Source of the DNA: Bacillus thermotolerans
GTDB taxonomy: Bacteria > Bacillota > Bacilli > Bacillales > Domibacillaceae
Assembly (NCBI RefSeq): GCF_000812025.2
Contig: NZ_JWJE02000037.1
Span: forward strand, 14,594-38,593
DNA length: 24,000 bases
Reading direction: 5' to 3'
The position numbers were made by a program, and so were the translations under genes. Below are positions 8,579-11,820 of this stretch, piece by piece. How positions within the stretch are numbered: the first letter of the stretch is position 1; each line of letters starts with the position of its first letter. The notes under the pieces were generated by a model. It did no database searches, was not told where the DNA came from, and saw only the letters and a list, made by a program, of their open reading frames with translations.

Positions 8579-8616
8579 CGGTATTGAATTCTTAGATAGA
8601 GAAAGGGGGATTGGGT

Positions 8617-9030
8617 GTGTCTGAAGAAAGGGGCGGCCTTATGACCACGGAAAGTTTCGCGCTAAAAATGTTTGAAGAGATAGGCGGCCTACGAGGAGAT
8701 TTAAAAGAAGTGTCTGCTACGATGAGAGGTATTGATGAAAAGCTGAACCACATGAATGATAAAATCGAGGATGTAAAGCTTATAGCAAAAGGGGCAGCAG
8801 AAACAGCATCGATTGCGAATGATACGGCTAGCAAGTCGCTAAACATGGCTGAAGATAATAAAGAGGATATTGAGCGCCTTTTCGAGAAGTTCCGCGAAAA
8901 AGATAAAGAGAGAAAAGCAGACCGTAAAGAGACATCAGATAAGATTGTGAAATGGGTAGGAATTGTAGTTCCAGCGAGTATCGGGATTACGAGCCTTATT
9001 GTGACGATCATTCTTAACTTTTCCAATTAA
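8617..9030 (+). CDS. XhlA-like lysis-associated membrane protein (coiled coil plus C-terminal TM anchor). The start is ambiguous: TTG 8611, GTG 8617 or ATG 8641.
   Basis: GTG 8617 lies 7 nt after RBS AAAGGGGG. The long charged helical region ends in the hydrophobic segment WVGIVVPASIGITSLIVTIILNF. Its position directly upstream of an XhlB-type holin and an amidase mirrors PBSX xhlA-xhlB-xlyA. Confidence 0.5.
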   Translation: MSEERGGLMTTESFALKMFEEIGGLRGDLKEVSATMRGIDEKLNHMNDKIEDVKLIAKGAAETASIANDTASKSLNMAEDNKEDIERLFEKFREKDKERKADRKETSDKIVKWVGIVVPASIGITSLIVTIILNFSN

Positions 9031-9043
9031 GGAGGACAAATAA

Positions 9044-9283
9044 ATGAATAAAGTCGACACTGGAACGATCGTGCGGACGGTCGTTCTTTTTGTTGCGTTA
9101 ATTAATCAATTATTAGCGGCGTTCGGATACAGCCCTTTGCCTTTTGAGGACCACGAAGTTGAAATGTTTGTTTCAACCTTGGTTACTGCCATCACTTCAA
9201 TTATTGCATGGTGGAAAAACAACAATATTACTTGGAAAGCACGCAAGAATGCTCAGTATTTAAAGAAAGGCGGTCTTGAATAA
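9044..9283 (+). CDS. xhlB: Phage holin, XhlB / SPP1 holin family
   Basis: 79 aa. MNKVDTGTIVRTVVLFVALINQLL...IIAWWKNNNITWKARKN closely parallels my recollection of B. subtilis XhlB ([22 protein letters not shown]...AWFKNNYVT). Two TM segments; RBS AAGGAGGA. Confidence 0.85.
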   Translation: MNKVDTGTIVRTVVLFVALINQLLAAFGYSPLPFEDHEVEMFVSTLVTAITSIIAWWKNNNITWKARKNAQYLKKGGLE

Positions 9284-10062
9284 TGGCTAAAAACATCATT
9301 GTATGTGGACATGGTGCAGGAGATCCGGGCGCAGCGGCCAATGGCATTAATGAACGGGATTTCATCCGCCAAGAACTTGCACCACGAATCAAAAAGTATG
9401 CCGGTTCAGAGGTTGAAATTTATGATATGTCTAAGAACTGCTATAAGGAAACGAAAAGGGGGCGCGGCATTTACTCACTTAAAGACAAAAATGTCATTGA
9501 ATTTCATTTGGATGCGGCATCCAGCAGTGCTAAAGGCGGGCATATTATTTTTGGGTCTGGATTAAAAGCGGATGCTTTGGATGAACGCCTGGCCGGTGTC
9601 ATTAAAAAACACTTTGGCTGGAGAGGCAATAAAGCTTTTCATCCACGAAGCAACCTTTTAAATGCAAACACAGCCAAGCGAATCGGGGTGAATTATCGCC
9701 TCGTGGAAGTTTGTTTTGTAACTAATCCAAGTGAAGTCGCTTATCTAAAGAGAAACATCGACCAGGTCGCGCGTGATTTTGCCTCGGCGATTATCAATAA
9801 AGAGTTAAACACAGCCACATCAGCAAGTGCGACACAAACAACTAAAAAGGAGGAGATAGCAATGTTTTTGCCACCAGAAAGCATGCATGCGTCCGTCAGC
9901 AAAGTGTTGTTGCGTTTTGCCGATAAAAGTGTTCATGGAGATAAAGCAATTGATCTATCATGGCGTGAGCGATATTTAAAGGGAGAGCTAACACAAAATG
10001 AAGCGGTTGGACTGATTTATACGGCTTTAGAACGTGGATTAGTTATCGGAGATAAGAAGTAA
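9283..10062 (+). CDS. Endolysin: N-acetylmuramoyl-L-alanine amidase (Amidase_3 / MurNAc-LAA catalytic domain) with a C-terminal putative cell-wall-binding domain
   Basis: The start overlaps the holin stop (TAATG). The N-terminus IIVCGHGAGDPGAAANGINERDF fits the Amidase_3 zinc-site pattern. A Thr/Ser/Ala linker is followed by a ~65-aa C-terminal domain. Confidence 0.8.
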   Translation: MAKNIIVCGHGAGDPGAAANGINERDFIRQELAPRIKKYAGSEVEIYDMSKNCYKETKRGRGIYSLKDKNVIEFHLDAASSSAKGGHIIFGSGLKADALDERLAGVIKKHFGWRGNKAFHPRSNLLNANTAKRIGVNYRLVEVCFVTNPSEVAYLKRNIDQVARDFASAIINKELNTATSASATQTTKKEEIAMFLPPESMHASVSKVLLRFADKSVHGDKAIDLSWRERYLKGELTQNEAVGLIYTALERGLVIGDKK

Positions 10063-10069
10063 TCAAGGG

Positions 10070-10098
10070 CCCTGCTCTTAGCAGTGGGGCTTATTTAT
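10070..10098 (+). terminator. Probable rho-independent terminator closing the lysis operon
   Basis: CCCTGCT-CTT-AGCAG(T)GG hairpin (7 bp with one bulge) followed by the interrupted T-tract GCTTATTTAT. Confidence 0.4.
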
Positions 10099-10159
10099 GG
10101 AAGTAGAAGAAAAAGGTACCTGAAATTTATAAAAATACCATGCCTGTAGAGGGGAAATG

Positions 10160-10168
10160 TGGTACTAT
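10160..10168 (+). promoter_or_regulatory. Possible extended -10 promoter element (TGgTACTAT) for the TM-GAF cassette
   Basis: TG-n-TACTAT lies ~30 nt upstream of the 10199 start. No convincing -35 is present, which is tolerated by extended -10 promoters. Confidence 0.3.
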
Positions 10169-10198
10169 TTATCTATTACTGATATAGGGGGTGAATGA

Positions 10199-11020
10199 AT
10201 GAATTTTATTACGGAAACACAGACTTTTAACGAATTAGATCAATCACTTTCTAGCCAGGTTGATAACCTCCCTCCGTCATTATTCTTATGGTTGTTATAC
10301 ATTTTAATTATATTTGGTATACTTTATCTGGGGGTAAGGATTTGGAAGGTGCACAAAGCTCCTGGATCGGATTTGATCAAAGAGTACAAAGAAAACTTAG
10401 AGAAGACTATGGATGATTCTATGCAAAAGTCTCAGATATTGACATTGATTGATCAGGTTAGTAAGGAGATACCTTATTTATTAGAATTAAATCGAACAAA
10501 TCAAAAGTCCCAACTAACTGCCCACGGAAGAAAAGTAATGGACATGATAATAGAACAGATTCCATTAACTTTAAAAAGCATGAAGAAAATTAACCACAGG
10601 TGTGCAATTTTCGTGGTAGATGATGAGGATCCTAGTCAATTGAAAATTTTTGAGGGCTGTGGTTTCAGTGTAAAAGGCAAGGAAAAGTTACGTCTTAAAA
10701 TTAGCTCTTCGATAGCAGGAAAAACTTTGTCTAAAGGTGAATATACATATTGTAAGGATGTAACGGAAGACAAAAACTTTCAGAAAAAACCCGAGGCTAC
10801 TAAGACATATTATTCACTATTATGTTGTCCTATAATGTTGAACTCAAGCCCAATAGCGGTTTTGAGCATAGATGGATCAGTGAAGGATTGTTTTTCTGAG
10901 GACGATATAGCTTATTTCCAATTGTTCTCAAACCAACTAGCTATAATTTTCGACGTAGTGGGTAAAGATAATATTGAAGGAGGAGTTTGGTATGAGCAAG
11001 AAATACAGGACGCTAGATGA
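10199..11020 (+). CDS. Membrane-anchored GAF-domain protein (273 aa): acidic N-terminus, one TM helix, helical linker, Cys-rich GAF-like domain
   Basis: RBS AGGGGG lies 8 nt upstream. The TM helix is SLFLWLLYILIIFGILYLGVRIW, followed by KVHK, so the positive-inside rule puts the C-terminus in the cytoplasm. Residues ~100-255 (HRCAIFVVDDE..LKIFEGCGFS..LRLKISSSIAGKTLSKGEYTYCKDVTEDKNFQ..YYSLLCCPIMLNSSPIAVLSIDGS..FSEDDIAYFQLFSNQLAIIF) follow the GAF/GAF_2 consensus layout. GC is ~28-38% by hand count, against ~45-55% in flanking genes. Confidence 0.6.
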   Translation: MNFITETQTFNELDQSLSSQVDNLPPSLFLWLLYILIIFGILYLGVRIWKVHKAPGSDLIKEYKENLEKTMDDSMQKSQILTLIDQVSKEIPYLLELNRTNQKSQLTAHGRKVMDMIIEQIPLTLKSMKKINHRCAIFVVDDEDPSQLKIFEGCGFSVKGKEKLRLKISSSIAGKTLSKGEYTYCKDVTEDKNFQKKPEATKTYYSLLCCPIMLNSSPIAVLSIDGSVKDCFSEDDIAYFQLFSNQLAIIFDVVGKDNIEGGVWYEQEIQDAR

Positions 11021-11162
11021 AGCTAGAAGAGCCTACTTGAACGGAAAGATTACTGCTTTAGAATTTTCATCTTTGATGAAAAAGAATACAATCGCTGACA
11101 ATGAGCGAAAACAAATCCAAAAAAAGTCGAAAAAGATTGAAAGAAAGTTAGCAACAGTTTAA
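10992..11162 (+). CDS. Small basic helical ORF (56 aa: MSKKYRTLDEARRAYLNGKITALEFSSLMKKNTIADNERKQIQKKSKKIERKLATV), overlapping the GAF gene 3' end by 29 nt
   Basis: ATG 10992 lies 7 nt after the strong RBS AAGGAGGA (10977-10984), which is embedded in the upstream gene. The ORF-track start at 10974 lacks an RBS. The ORF ends directly at a strong terminator. Confidence 0.5.
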   Translation: MSKKYRTLDEARRAYLNGKITALEFSSLMKKNTIADNERKQIQKKSKKIERKLATV

Positions 11163-11190
11163 AGTCTGCTTTATCGAGCAGGCTTTTTTA
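11161..11190 (+). terminator. Rho-independent terminator of the TM-GAF/small-ORF unit
   Basis: AAAGTCTGCT-TTATCG-AGCAGGCTTT stem (7 core bp including one G-U, extendable by A-U pairs) followed by TTTTTT. Confidence 0.75.
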
Positions 11191-11251
11191 TTTATAGAAG
11201 GAATTTGTTCATACATAGCGAATAATCACAGTTCATAAAGGAGGAGAGAAC

Positions 11252-11473
11252 ATGTTAGAAGACATCAGAAACAGCAAAGAACTAGAGGAGTACATATTTG
11301 AAAATGATGTGGATCTTCGCCACAAAGGGAGCGGCCTTTCGGTTGCTATTGTGGAACCAACAGAAGAAGGCGAGGAGATGGCAATCATATTGAATGATGG
11401 CACAGAGGTAGAGTTTCCAGCTAATCAGCTGAGTGAATTATTTGAGGCAGCGCCATTAGAAAGAAAGAAATGA
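11252..11473 (+). CDS. Small acidic hypothetical protein (73 aa)
   Basis: Strong RBS AAAGGAGGAG lies 6-7 nt upstream of the ATG. The ORF is Glu/Asp-rich with no recognisable family. It is the last ORF before the rib promoter. Confidence 0.5.
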   Translation: MLEDIRNSKELEEYIFENDVDLRHKGSGLSVAIVEPTEEGEEMAIILNDGTEVEFPANQLSELFEAAPLERKK

Positions 11474-11492
11474 AAAACTTTTCAGCAGTTTT

Positions 11493-11523
11493 AATTGGGG
11501 ACGATGGGGACGAATTGGGGACC
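11493..11523. repeat. Short direct repeats AATTGGGGACGA-TGGGGACGA-ATTGGGGACC. Possible att core or recombinase-binding repeats at the prophage/chromosome junction.
   Basis: TGGGGACGA occurs at 11496-11504 and 11505-11513, and TGGGGACC at 11516-11523. AATTGGGGAC occurs at 11493 and 11513. The repeats are non-coding and lie between the last phage-side ORF and the rib promoter. Confidence 0.5.
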
Positions 11524-11583
11524 AAATTCACCAAAAACGTTTATTTTCCATCGAAATTAATCATAAAGAGAAAGTTAAAAACC

Positions 11584-11613
11584 TTGACACAATCGCATTT
11601 TAAGGGAGATAAT
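11584..11613 (+). promoter_or_regulatory. Sigma-A-type promoter of the rib operon
   Basis: -35 TTGACA (11584-11589), 18-nt spacer, -10 GATAAT (11608-11613). It lies ~20 nt upstream of the FMN riboswitch. Confidence 0.55.
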
Positions 11614-11630
11614 AAGATATAAATTGAATA

Positions 11631-11768
11631 GGATATCCTTCGGGGCAGGGTGAAATTCCCTACCGGCGGTGATGAGCCTGCGCTCTCAGCCCGTGACCCG
11701 CATTCGTTTGCGGTGGATTCGGTGAAATTCCGGAGCCGACAGTGATAGTCTGGATGGGAGAAGGATGA
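11631..11768 (+). promoter_or_regulatory. FMN riboswitch (RFN element) aptamer
   Basis: Near-textbook RFN sequence: GGATATCCTTCGGGGCAGGGTGAAATTCCCTACCGGCGGT...AGCCCGTGACCCG...GCGGTGGATTCGGTGAAATTCCGGAGCCGACAGTGATAGTCTGGATGGGAGAAGGAT. The P1 helix pairs ATCCTTC with GAAGGAT. It sits upstream of ribD, as in B. subtilis. Confidence 0.95.
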
Positions 11769-11820
11769 AGCAGCGCGTTAAAAATAAACGTTTTTAATGC
11801 TTATTTGGCTATGCCTTTTC

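Follow-up and report, generated by a model that had tools for sequence, protein, structure and literature searches.

A membrane-anchored GAF protein and its overlapping small basic partner as a putative toxin-antitoxin-type cassette in a prophage of Bacillus thermotolerans

Two overlapping genes behind a prophage endolysin gene

The 24,000-nt stretch of DNA analysed here (the window, to which all coordinates are relative; Bacillus (Quasibacillus) thermotolerans, contig NZ_JWJE02000037.1, positions 14,594-38,593 of the forward strand) carries, behind the lysis genes of a prophage, a cassette of two genes. Gene 1 codes for a membrane-anchored protein with a GAF domain and gene 2 for a small basic protein (Table 1). 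The cassette is a real, self-contained and uncatalogued accessory module in a defence-prone slot, and with a probability of about 0.5 it is a self-contained, horizontally mobile toxin-antitoxin-type module that the prophage carries as a moron. An earlier note on this DNA had described two open reading frames (ORFs), with the ribosome-binding site of the second embedded in the first and an overlap of 29 nt between them, and the ORF calls and the sequence bear this out.

The product of gene 1 is identical to the NCBI protein WP_039237303.1, annotated as 'GAF domain-containing protein'. Residues 125-252 score 49.2 bits (E=7.9e-13) with Pfam GAF_2 (PF13185), for which the gathering cut-off is 28.6, and Pfam GAF (PF01590) is matched with 24.6 bits, its cut-off being 22.4. 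The AlphaFold2 model, built on a 17-sequence alignment (predicted local distance difference test score, pLDDT, 79), consists of a short N-terminal helix, a transmembrane helix (residues 28-53), long helices (57-99 and 103-129), an α/β GAF domain (133-254), and a disordered tail. When this model is compared with the PDB by Foldseek, the top 50 matches are almost all GAF domains (E from 8e-9 to 6e-6), with TM-scores (target) of up to 0.8; among these relatives, PtsP, Lcd1 with cyclic AMP (cAMP), PDE10A GAF-B, and free methionine-R-sulfoxide reductase (fRMsr) are found at E about 1e-8. The best solved relative by the gene 1 family profile is PDE10A GAF-B (E=4.8e-12). The GAF fold that the earlier note wanted checked by profile and structure searches is therefore real, and these searches place the protein in no characterised phage structural or lysis family, PHROGs giving no match to either gene 1 or gene 2.

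Gene 1 contains a single hydrophobic segment. The acidic tail in front of it has a net charge of -4 and no lysine or arginine, and four such residues follow the transmembrane helix. Throughout the close family, the 15 residues that precede the helix include 0-1 lysines or arginines, and the 15 that follow it include 2-5. The C-terminal part contains six cysteines (4-6 across the close family). From the charge distribution, the cysteine content, and a partner protein that lacks a signal peptide, the GAF domain is predicted to be cytoplasmic and the acidic N-tail to lie outside, which predicts an N-out, C-in topology from sequence. The acidic N-terminus, the single transmembrane helix, and the cytoplasmic Cys-rich GAF domain that had been read from the letters are in this way supported by Pfam, AlphaFold2, Foldseek, and the charge distribution, the topology being a prediction. 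The strongest conserved motif of the gene 1 family outside the GAF domain, D73-S74-x-Q76-K77-S78, is located on the long helices, which are likely a region for dimerisation or partner binding. Gene 1 has the canonical GAF sequence and fold in common with the soluble and sensor GAF domains of PDE10A (GAF-B), Lcd1, PtsP, NifA, and fRMsr. In the first four of these, however, the GAF domain has a regulatory role and is joined to an enzyme or a DNA-binding domain, and fRMsr is an enzyme by itself, whereas in gene 1 the GAF domain is the sole globular domain, is tethered by one transmembrane helix, and is accompanied by a micro-protein partner.

The product of gene 2 is identical to WP_157761902.1, a 'hypothetical protein', and is strongly basic (isoelectric point 10.3, net charge +10). 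Ten orthologues align from the ATG at 10992, which is therefore taken as the start despite an upstream TTG option at 10974, and the ribosome-binding site AAGGAGGA doubles as codons for a conserved GG close to the C-terminus of gene 1. In the predicted structure (pLDDT 84, predicted TM-score, pTM, 0.45), a short helix (residues 8-16) and a long one (22-55) form no globular fold, and the elongated helical shape of this model suits a partner-binding peptide. For the non-overlapping part of gene 2, the ratio of nonsynonymous to synonymous substitution rates (dN/dS) is about 0.16 in 15 usable pairs, which indicates purifying selection. Mean column identity is 74% for gene 2 versus 60% for gene 1. 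Searches with gene 2 against Pfam, PHROGs, NCBIfam, PADLOC, and the PDB yield no significant match.

UniRef labels gene 2 as 'Antitoxin VbhA domain-containing protein', and this label was rejected because it could not be reproduced by profile tests. None of 11 gene 2 orthologues matches the VbhA families of Pfam at E<=10, no VbhA chain is found in the PDB profile search, and hhalign gives gene 2 against VbhA a probability of 0.15%. The inhibitory motif of VbhA is (S/T)xxxE(G/N); it is absent from 11 of the 11 orthologues, and no Fic-domain gene is annotated near the pair in any genomic context examined. A sub-threshold Pfam match to YppF covers residues 8-31 of gene 2 and occurs in six of the 11 orthologues (best E=0.005, 16.7 bits versus a cut-off of 24.7), and Foldseek aligns gene 2 non-significantly with YppF in the CodY-YppF model (9a6f_B, E=2.9). 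CodY carries a GAF domain. YppF cross-links to CodY in cells of Bacillus subtilis (PMC11383924). The G-K-I-T-x-x-E-F motif of gene 2 may be a marker of small GAF-binding proteins, which we regard as a lead only.

That the cassette is a transcription unit of its own, as the earlier note had it, is supported. The terminator is confirmed and an intrinsic terminator follows directly 3' of gene 2 in every close-family locus examined; likewise, the extended -10 element is conserved. Six of eight loci have it, as TATGGTAAAAT or TGTGGTACTAT, at a distance of about 30-45 nt upstream of gene 1, and a TATGGTAAAAT counterpart stands at the corresponding position in five of seven orthologous loci. On the other side, the -35/-10 consensus scan missed the extended -10 element TGgTACTAT of the window, and the hairpin behind the endolysin gene is weak.

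Family members and their genomic contexts

The close family of gene 1 comprises 17 protein clusters among 5.8 billion, and its named members are all Bacillaceae, namely Bacillus sp. KH172YL63, Metabacillus, Neobacillus niacini, and Halalkalibacter krulwichiae. A scan of 185,579 species genomes gives one locus, in N. niacini, and IMG/VR gives one locus, in an H. krulwichiae prophage. No match to the gene 1 family exists in 50,697 phage genomes, a tblastn search of phages and plasmids finds no family member, and scans of metagenomes return no new family locus, their only match being a contig already seen as locus L017. The profile search of a word-indexed protein database adds a single protein, P0157, to the family. 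By an exhaustive hidden Markov model search, about 30 representatives of a wider family are detected (265-310 residues), which keep the whole architecture at 24-32% identity as well as the helix motif 'LN.DSKQK'; their named hosts, Pullulanibacillus, Brevibacillus, Alicyclobacillus, Desulforadius, and Dehalobacterium, all belong to the Bacillota. A 171-residue 'truncated' homologue, P0001, was considered as a pseudogene and rejected as a contig-end artefact.

In each of the 13 distinct genomic contexts examined, the GAF gene shares its 3' end with a small overlapping ORF, so that the co-occurrence of the two ORFs with their overlap, one of the checks proposed for the pair, is found throughout. 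In the close family, the partner ORF has 54-58 codons for amino acids, overlaps by 23-35 nt, and has its Shine-Dalgarno sequence inside gene 1. Even P0157, a distant relative at 29% identity, has an overlapping ORF that can be aligned with the gene 2 profile (hhalign P=1.4e-4, 38 columns); the carrier of P0157 is a 103-kb plasmid-like contig with TrbC, a ParM-like gene, ParA, and T2SSE.

The pair stands directly after the endolysin gene, on the same strand, in six of the 13 contexts, all prophages, and the endolysins that precede it are of four types (M23+LysM, Amidase_3, Amidase_3+SH3, and Amidase_2/LysM). In one further context, again a prophage (locus L009, 3708-7091), it comes after a VanY lysin and the defence system IetA/IetS (Gao_Iet), which lies between the VanY endolysin gene and the GAF pair and is recognised by PADLOC with E=4e-92 and 6e-61. 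The presence of the complete IetA/IetS system confirms that the slot behind the lysin gene is a hotspot for defence genes in these phages. Two contexts are different prophages of one H. krulwichiae genome that share an identical cassette of roughly 4 kb, consisting of a reverse transcriptase gene (360 aa), small ORFs, the GAF pair, an HTH_26 gene, and a tyrosine recombinase gene (280-296 aa), so that this block seems to be mobile or recombining. Its reverse transcriptase has the sequence 'IGFYTSQ', which we take to fit the IGxxxSQ motif of reverse transcriptases from diversity-generating retroelements. Upstream of this cassette a putative variable tail-fibre C-terminus is encoded, and in one of the prophages the tail genes are interrupted by the cassette. 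The pair is also located on a TrbL-type conjugative element near a GmrSD_N gene (one context) and among ordinary chromosomal genes, some of them decayed, with no phage genes nearby (two contexts). Lysis genes are lacking near the pair in loci L003, L020, L021, and L017, and defence genes are its neighbours in two loci. The accessory or defence slot assumed in the earlier note is thus upheld in so far as IetA/IetS adjoins the pair in L009, but the pair is not tied to prophage ends. Its occurrence in unrelated prophages, on a conjugative element, on a plasmid-like contig, and in the chromosome argues for an autonomous mobile two-gene module rather than a part of the lysis machinery.

An analogous pair of unclear homology exists on plasmid pTHECO01 of Thermobacillus composti (NC_019898.1; L018, 3377-4566), where a 339-residue protein combines two hydrophobic segments near its N-terminus with a coiled coil and a GAF_2 domain (E=4.5e-14), and a 57-residue acidic partner ORF comes next, overlapping the GAF gene by 4 nt. 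This suggests that mobile elements repeatedly carry the combination of a membrane GAF protein with an overlapping micro-ORF, the partners being different. Several of the prophages with the pair encode a tyrosine recombinase of 329-330 residues between tail genes and lysis cassette, where an integrase would not usually be expected; a divergent HTH_26 gene accompanies it in L006 and L007.

In the window itself, the order of genes on the plus strand is tail genes, a 139-residue membrane protein, holin, endolysin, the cassette, two small coupled ORFs, a flavin mononucleotide (FMN) riboswitch, and ribD. From its position between the lysis genes and the rib leader, the cassette is placed at the right-hand end of the prophage, just upstream of the rib leader; as this end is at most about 450 nt from the leader, the prophage is integrated immediately upstream of riboflavin biosynthesis. 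With a guanine-plus-cytosine (GC) content of 0.346, the cassette is the minimum among 1.1-kb stretches of the 24-kb window (mean 0.449, standard deviation 0.034), as expected from the low GC reported before; the contrast with its neighbours had been overstated, however, as the lysis genes are at 0.42-0.43 rather than 0.47-0.57. The rib operon is at 0.485.

The space from the cassette to the rib leader is occupied by a second mini-operon (11252-11622), which consists of an acidic 73-residue ORF (11252-11473), situated behind a strong AAGGAGGAG site and weakly matching DUF2442 (E=0.085), and a 50-residue ORF (11470-11622) that overlaps the former by 4 nt (ATGA) and whose 3' end overlaps the likely rib promoter (TTGACA-18-GATAAT, 11584-11613). 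Both are annotated as genes on identical metagenome contigs (L012). The 1097-bp cassette is bracketed by a 13-nt direct repeat, TTATTTAT(G/A)GAAG, of which the window contains only these two copies. This repeat could be an insertion footprint, but a local or chance origin is probable, because no equivalent is present in the nine other loci compared and a repeat of such length is expected by chance in the region.

Table 1. Features of the cassette and its surroundings in the window, followed by loci of related prophages, which are given with their L numbers.
Feature	Position	Strand	Basis or remark
139-aa membrane protein	8611-9030	+	downstream of tail genes
SPP1-type holin (Holin_SPP1)	9044-9283	+	profile match
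Amidase_3 endolysin	9283-10062	+	profile match
Weak terminator-like hairpin after endolysin gene, upstream cassette border	10074-10090	+	terminator scan
Direct repeat copy 1, TTATTTATGGAAG	10091-10103	+	after endolysin hairpin
Putative extended -10 element TGgTACTAT	10160-10168	+	read from sequence; putative function
Shine-Dalgarno-like AGGGGGTGA upstream of gene 1 ATG	10186-10194	+	read from sequence
Gene 1, 273 aa, putative toxin/effector	10199-11020	+	ORF call; WP_039237303.1
Codons for single transmembrane helix, residues about 27-47	10277-10339	+	predicted N-out/C-in
Codons for long cytoplasmic helices	10340-10570	+	predicted model, alignment
Codons for GAF domain, residues 125-252	10571-10954	+	Pfam
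Gene 2 ribosome-binding site AAGGAGGA, inside gene 1	10977-10984	+	7 nt upstream of ATG 10992
Gene 2, 56 aa, putative antitoxin/regulator	10992-11162	+	ORF call; WP_157761902.1
Intrinsic terminator, stem 11161-11186 and T-run	11161-11200	+	terminator scan
Direct repeat copy 2, TTATTTATAGAAG	11188-11200	+	after cassette terminator
FMN riboswitch	11632-11769		Rfam RF00050, 116 bits
ribD, start of rib operon	from 11918	+	
H. krulwichiae cassette	L004 and L005 6314-10184; L011 3562-8169		
Tyrosine recombinase between tail genes and lysis cassette	L006 4726-6042; L007 4545-5887; L008 2939-3931		

Membrane toxins and holins with comparable architecture

The pair belongs to no named defence system, in agreement with the earlier note: PADLOC-DB v2.0.0 contains no match to gene 1 or gene 2 at E<=1, and none at E<=0.01 to two GAF proteins of the wider family. 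Two other points of that note need correction. The analogy drawn with CBASS and Pycsar finds no counterpart in the gene neighbourhoods, as none of the 13 contexts has an annotated nucleotide cyclase gene close to the pair, and a transmembrane GAF protein encoded with a micro-ORF is not without precedent, since SpoIISA/SpoIISB and toxFtsL_D9:PanA are such precedents (PMC3057836; PMC6562991; PMC10440598). By analogy, the pair seems to resemble most the few known toxin-antitoxin systems with a membrane GAF protein.

SpoIISA of B. subtilis, a protein of 248 residues with three transmembrane segments and a cytoplasmic GAF-fold domain after an extended helix, disrupts membrane and wall, and the gene for its 56-residue antitoxin SpoIISB is located just downstream of spoIISA in a locus that adjoins PBSX (PMC3057836; PMC6562991). 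The likeness of the present pair to SpoIISA/SpoIISB (SpoIISC) consists in a membrane protein with a cytoplasmic GAF-like domain behind an extended helix, in the order of the genes, with that of the toxin first and that of a basic 56-residue partner directly downstream, in a locus that borders on a prophage at its lysis end (PBSX in the case of spoIIS), and in a Bacillus host. In contrast to the one transmembrane segment of gene 1, SpoIISA has three, which are required for toxicity. Also, spoIIS belongs to the core genome of many bacilli, whereas the present pair is rare and mobile.

The toxin of the NetFlax pair toxFtsL_D9:PanA from Gelidibacter mesophilus (WP_027127282.1), a 281-residue protein described as 'GAF; FtsL; transmembrane', was validated by toxicity-neutralisation assays; it acts slowly and blocks divisome assembly without depolarisation, after which the culture collapses (Ernits et al., 2023; PMC10440598). 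By description, it is similar to gene 1 in size (281 versus 273 residues), in its localisation to the membrane, in an α-helical region followed by a GAF domain, and in being part of a two-gene toxin-antitoxin module. However, its antitoxin is a Panacea-domain protein and its host one of the Bacteroidota, whereas the present pair is found in Bacillota and its second member is an unrelated 56-residue basic helical protein encoded downstream with an overlap. No Panacea-domain match is found in gene 2 or the flanking ORFs, and none is annotated beside the pair in the 13 contexts. A Pfam scan of gene 1 gives no FtsL or DivIC family at E<=1, the original toxFtsL assignment having used more sensitive profile-profile searches.

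Among viral protein models (BFVD), Foldseek aligns gene 1 with single-transmembrane phage proteins annotated as GAF-containing and with class III (T4 T-type) holins, i.e., the class III holin of Proteus phage Stubb (E=2.1e-5), the holin of phiP4-3 (E=7.2e-5), and the 'T holin lysis mediator' of Serratia phage PS2 (E=3.7e-4, target TM-score, TMt, 0.63, 151 columns). These alignments of models would imply a GAF-like soluble domain in holin T. With holin T and antiholin RI of phage T4, the pair has in common a single transmembrane helix followed by a helix and an α/β domain, a small partner, which controls activity in T4 and would do so here, and an association with lysis genes. In T4, holin T is oriented N-in with a periplasmic domain, and this topology is opposite to the N-out arrangement with a cytoplasmic Cys-rich domain predicted for the gene 1 family. 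No sequence match of gene 1 to class III holins is found in Pfam or PHROGs.

Possible functions of the GAF pair

If the pair is a toxin-antitoxin-type module, gene 1 would insert into the membrane by its one N-terminal helix, leaving the short acidic tail outside and the long helices and the GAF domain in the cytoplasm, where it would dimerise, probably via the helices. Unrestrained, it might damage the cell envelope in the manner of the precedents SpoIISA, which disrupts membrane and wall, and toxFtsL, which causes lysis after its block of divisome assembly. By the 29-nt overlap, translation of gene 2 would be coupled to that of gene 1 on one mRNA at a fixed ratio, and the long basic helix of gene 2 would bind the cytoplasmic helices or the GAF domain of gene 1 and hold gene 1 inactive. 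An extended -10 promoter belonging to the cassette would drive both genes, so that their transcription would not depend on the late lysis operon. Gene 1 could then be released by loss of its partner or by a signal at the GAF pocket, candidate triggers being that the element is lost or that an infecting phage shuts off the host, and would kill or arrest the cell, resulting in abortive infection or in a cell addicted to its prophage or conjugative element. This reading is favoured by the constant pairing of the two genes and the conservation of gene 2, by the transcription signals, low GC, and mobility of the cassette, by the defence genes beside it in two loci, by the two precedents, and by the elongated shape of gene 2 and the T-type holins among the structural matches of gene 1. 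While gene structure, GAF fold, predicted topology, pairing, and mobility are shown, we infer that gene 1 is toxic, that gene 2 binds and neutralises it, what triggers its release, and that phages are affected.

Several results weigh against a toxin-antitoxin-type function. With query sequences of SpoIISA and SpoIISB verified against chains A and B of PDB 3O6Q, no relationship to this system can be detected: gene 1 has no Pfam SpoIISA_toxin match at E<=1, its family profile does not list 3o6q_A in the PDB at E<=10, hhalign of its alignment against SpoIISA gives a probability of 0.2%, and the top 50 Foldseek matches of its model do not include 3o6q. Likewise, hhalign of the gene 2 alignment against SpoIISB covers one column with a probability of 0.2%, and the helical structure predicted for gene 2 differs from the native disorder of SpoIISB. 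Homology to SpoIISA/SpoIISB was rejected on these negative profile tests, and the system is retained as an analogue only. Furthermore, a GAF domain of the canonical ligand-binding type, with PDE10A GAF-B and Lcd1 as relatives, is equally compatible with a pure sensor role, and expression of the cassette in the lysogen from its own promoter we infer solely from promoter-like sequence.

A sensor role is the core of a rival reading that seems possible, albeit doubtful, in which the two proteins form a non-toxic signalling pair: the membrane-tethered GAF sensor would hold gene 2 at the membrane and free it on binding a metabolite or nucleotide, whereupon gene 2 would regulate prophage or host genes, the mechanism being one of partner switching or sequestration. 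The GAF domain, whose best relatives are those of PDE10A (GAF-B), Lcd1, PtsP, and NifA, is in line with this, and so is gene 2, being as strongly basic (+10) as small nucleic-acid-binding proteins often are and resembling, below threshold, the CodY-cross-linked YppF (PMC11383924). However, this resemblance stays under the Pfam cut-off (16.7 versus 24.7 bits), gene 2 with its modelled short and long helix and no significant Pfam or PDB match has no recognisable DNA-binding fold, and a regulator needs conserved targets, yet the carriers among which the pair moves are as different as unrelated prophages, the bare chromosome, a plasmid-like contig, and a conjugative element. The immediate proximity to the endolysin gene, on the same strand in six prophages, together with the class III or T-type holins among the viral Foldseek matches, might instead indicate a lysis-timing accessory, with gene 1 as a class-III-holin-like protein and gene 2 as its antiholin, tuning lysis by the SPP1-type holin and the amidase. 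We consider this unlikely. The cassette has a promoter-like element and a terminator of its own, with a hairpin standing between it and the lysin gene; a Holin_SPP1 gene already precedes the endolysin gene, as holin or XhlA genes do in the orthologous prophage loci; and the pair also exists where no lysis genes are nearby (the four loci named above). In addition, the predicted N-out/C-in topology is opposite to that of T4 holin T, Pfam gives no holin match, and the 50,697 phage genomes contain no match.

Since the closest solved relatives include cAMP-binding GAF domains, those of PDE10A (GAF-B, E=4.8e-12) and Lcd1, gene 1 could also act as a counter-defence sponge, i.e., a membrane-tethered GAF protein that soaks up a cyclic-nucleotide immune signal and protects the phage or the lysogen. 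The earlier note had offered such a ligand sponge as its alternative, and it fits poorly with a membrane anchor and a partner that are both obligate here, whereas sponges are, to our knowledge, soluble and act alone; as the pair also persists in chromosomal and conjugative contexts, this function appears quite improbable. An enzymatic function as fRMsr has been assigned automatically by JGI to several orthologues, and fRMsr structures are among the Foldseek matches (E about 1e-7) of this Cys-rich domain. Profile matches to fRMsr are weak, however (E 0.05-0.3 versus about 5e-12 for the GAF domain of PDE), C135, C154, and C231 are replaced in the wider family, where C209 alone of the cysteines is kept, the motif of C209 (LLCvPI) aligns with PDE10A GAF-B as well, and a membrane anchor with an obligate partner is unexpected for a soluble enzyme. 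There is hardly any likelihood, therefore, that gene 1 is an fRMsr.

Returning to the toxin-antitoxin-type module, a bolder version of it, which we put forward as a speculation with a small chance of being correct, would make the pair the founding member of an unrecognised family of abortive-infection systems borne by prophages and integrative and conjugative elements in Bacillota, with a single-pass effector, a GAF pocket that reads an infection-derived small molecule, and a micro-protein as safety catch. If true, this would be the first defence system with a GAF domain as sensor, and SpoIISA, toxFtsL, and T-type holins would fall into a single mechanistic class, that of envelope killers controlled by a GAF domain. 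Should the pair prove toxic and protective against phage, catalogues of defence systems would be extended by it, PADLOC-DB v2.0.0 currently missing it. As an antitoxin-like protein, gene 2 would add a new small family to a toxin type already known for swapping its partners. Membrane-anchored GAF toxins have so far been two isolated cases, SpoIISA and toxFtsL, neither with a known physiological role. The GAF pair is a compact mobile unit that occurs repeatedly in the accessory slot behind prophage endolysins and beside known defence genes, and it may therefore offer a testable setting in which to ask what membrane-GAF toxins are for, be it defence, addiction, or exclusion, and whether the GAF pocket is their trigger.

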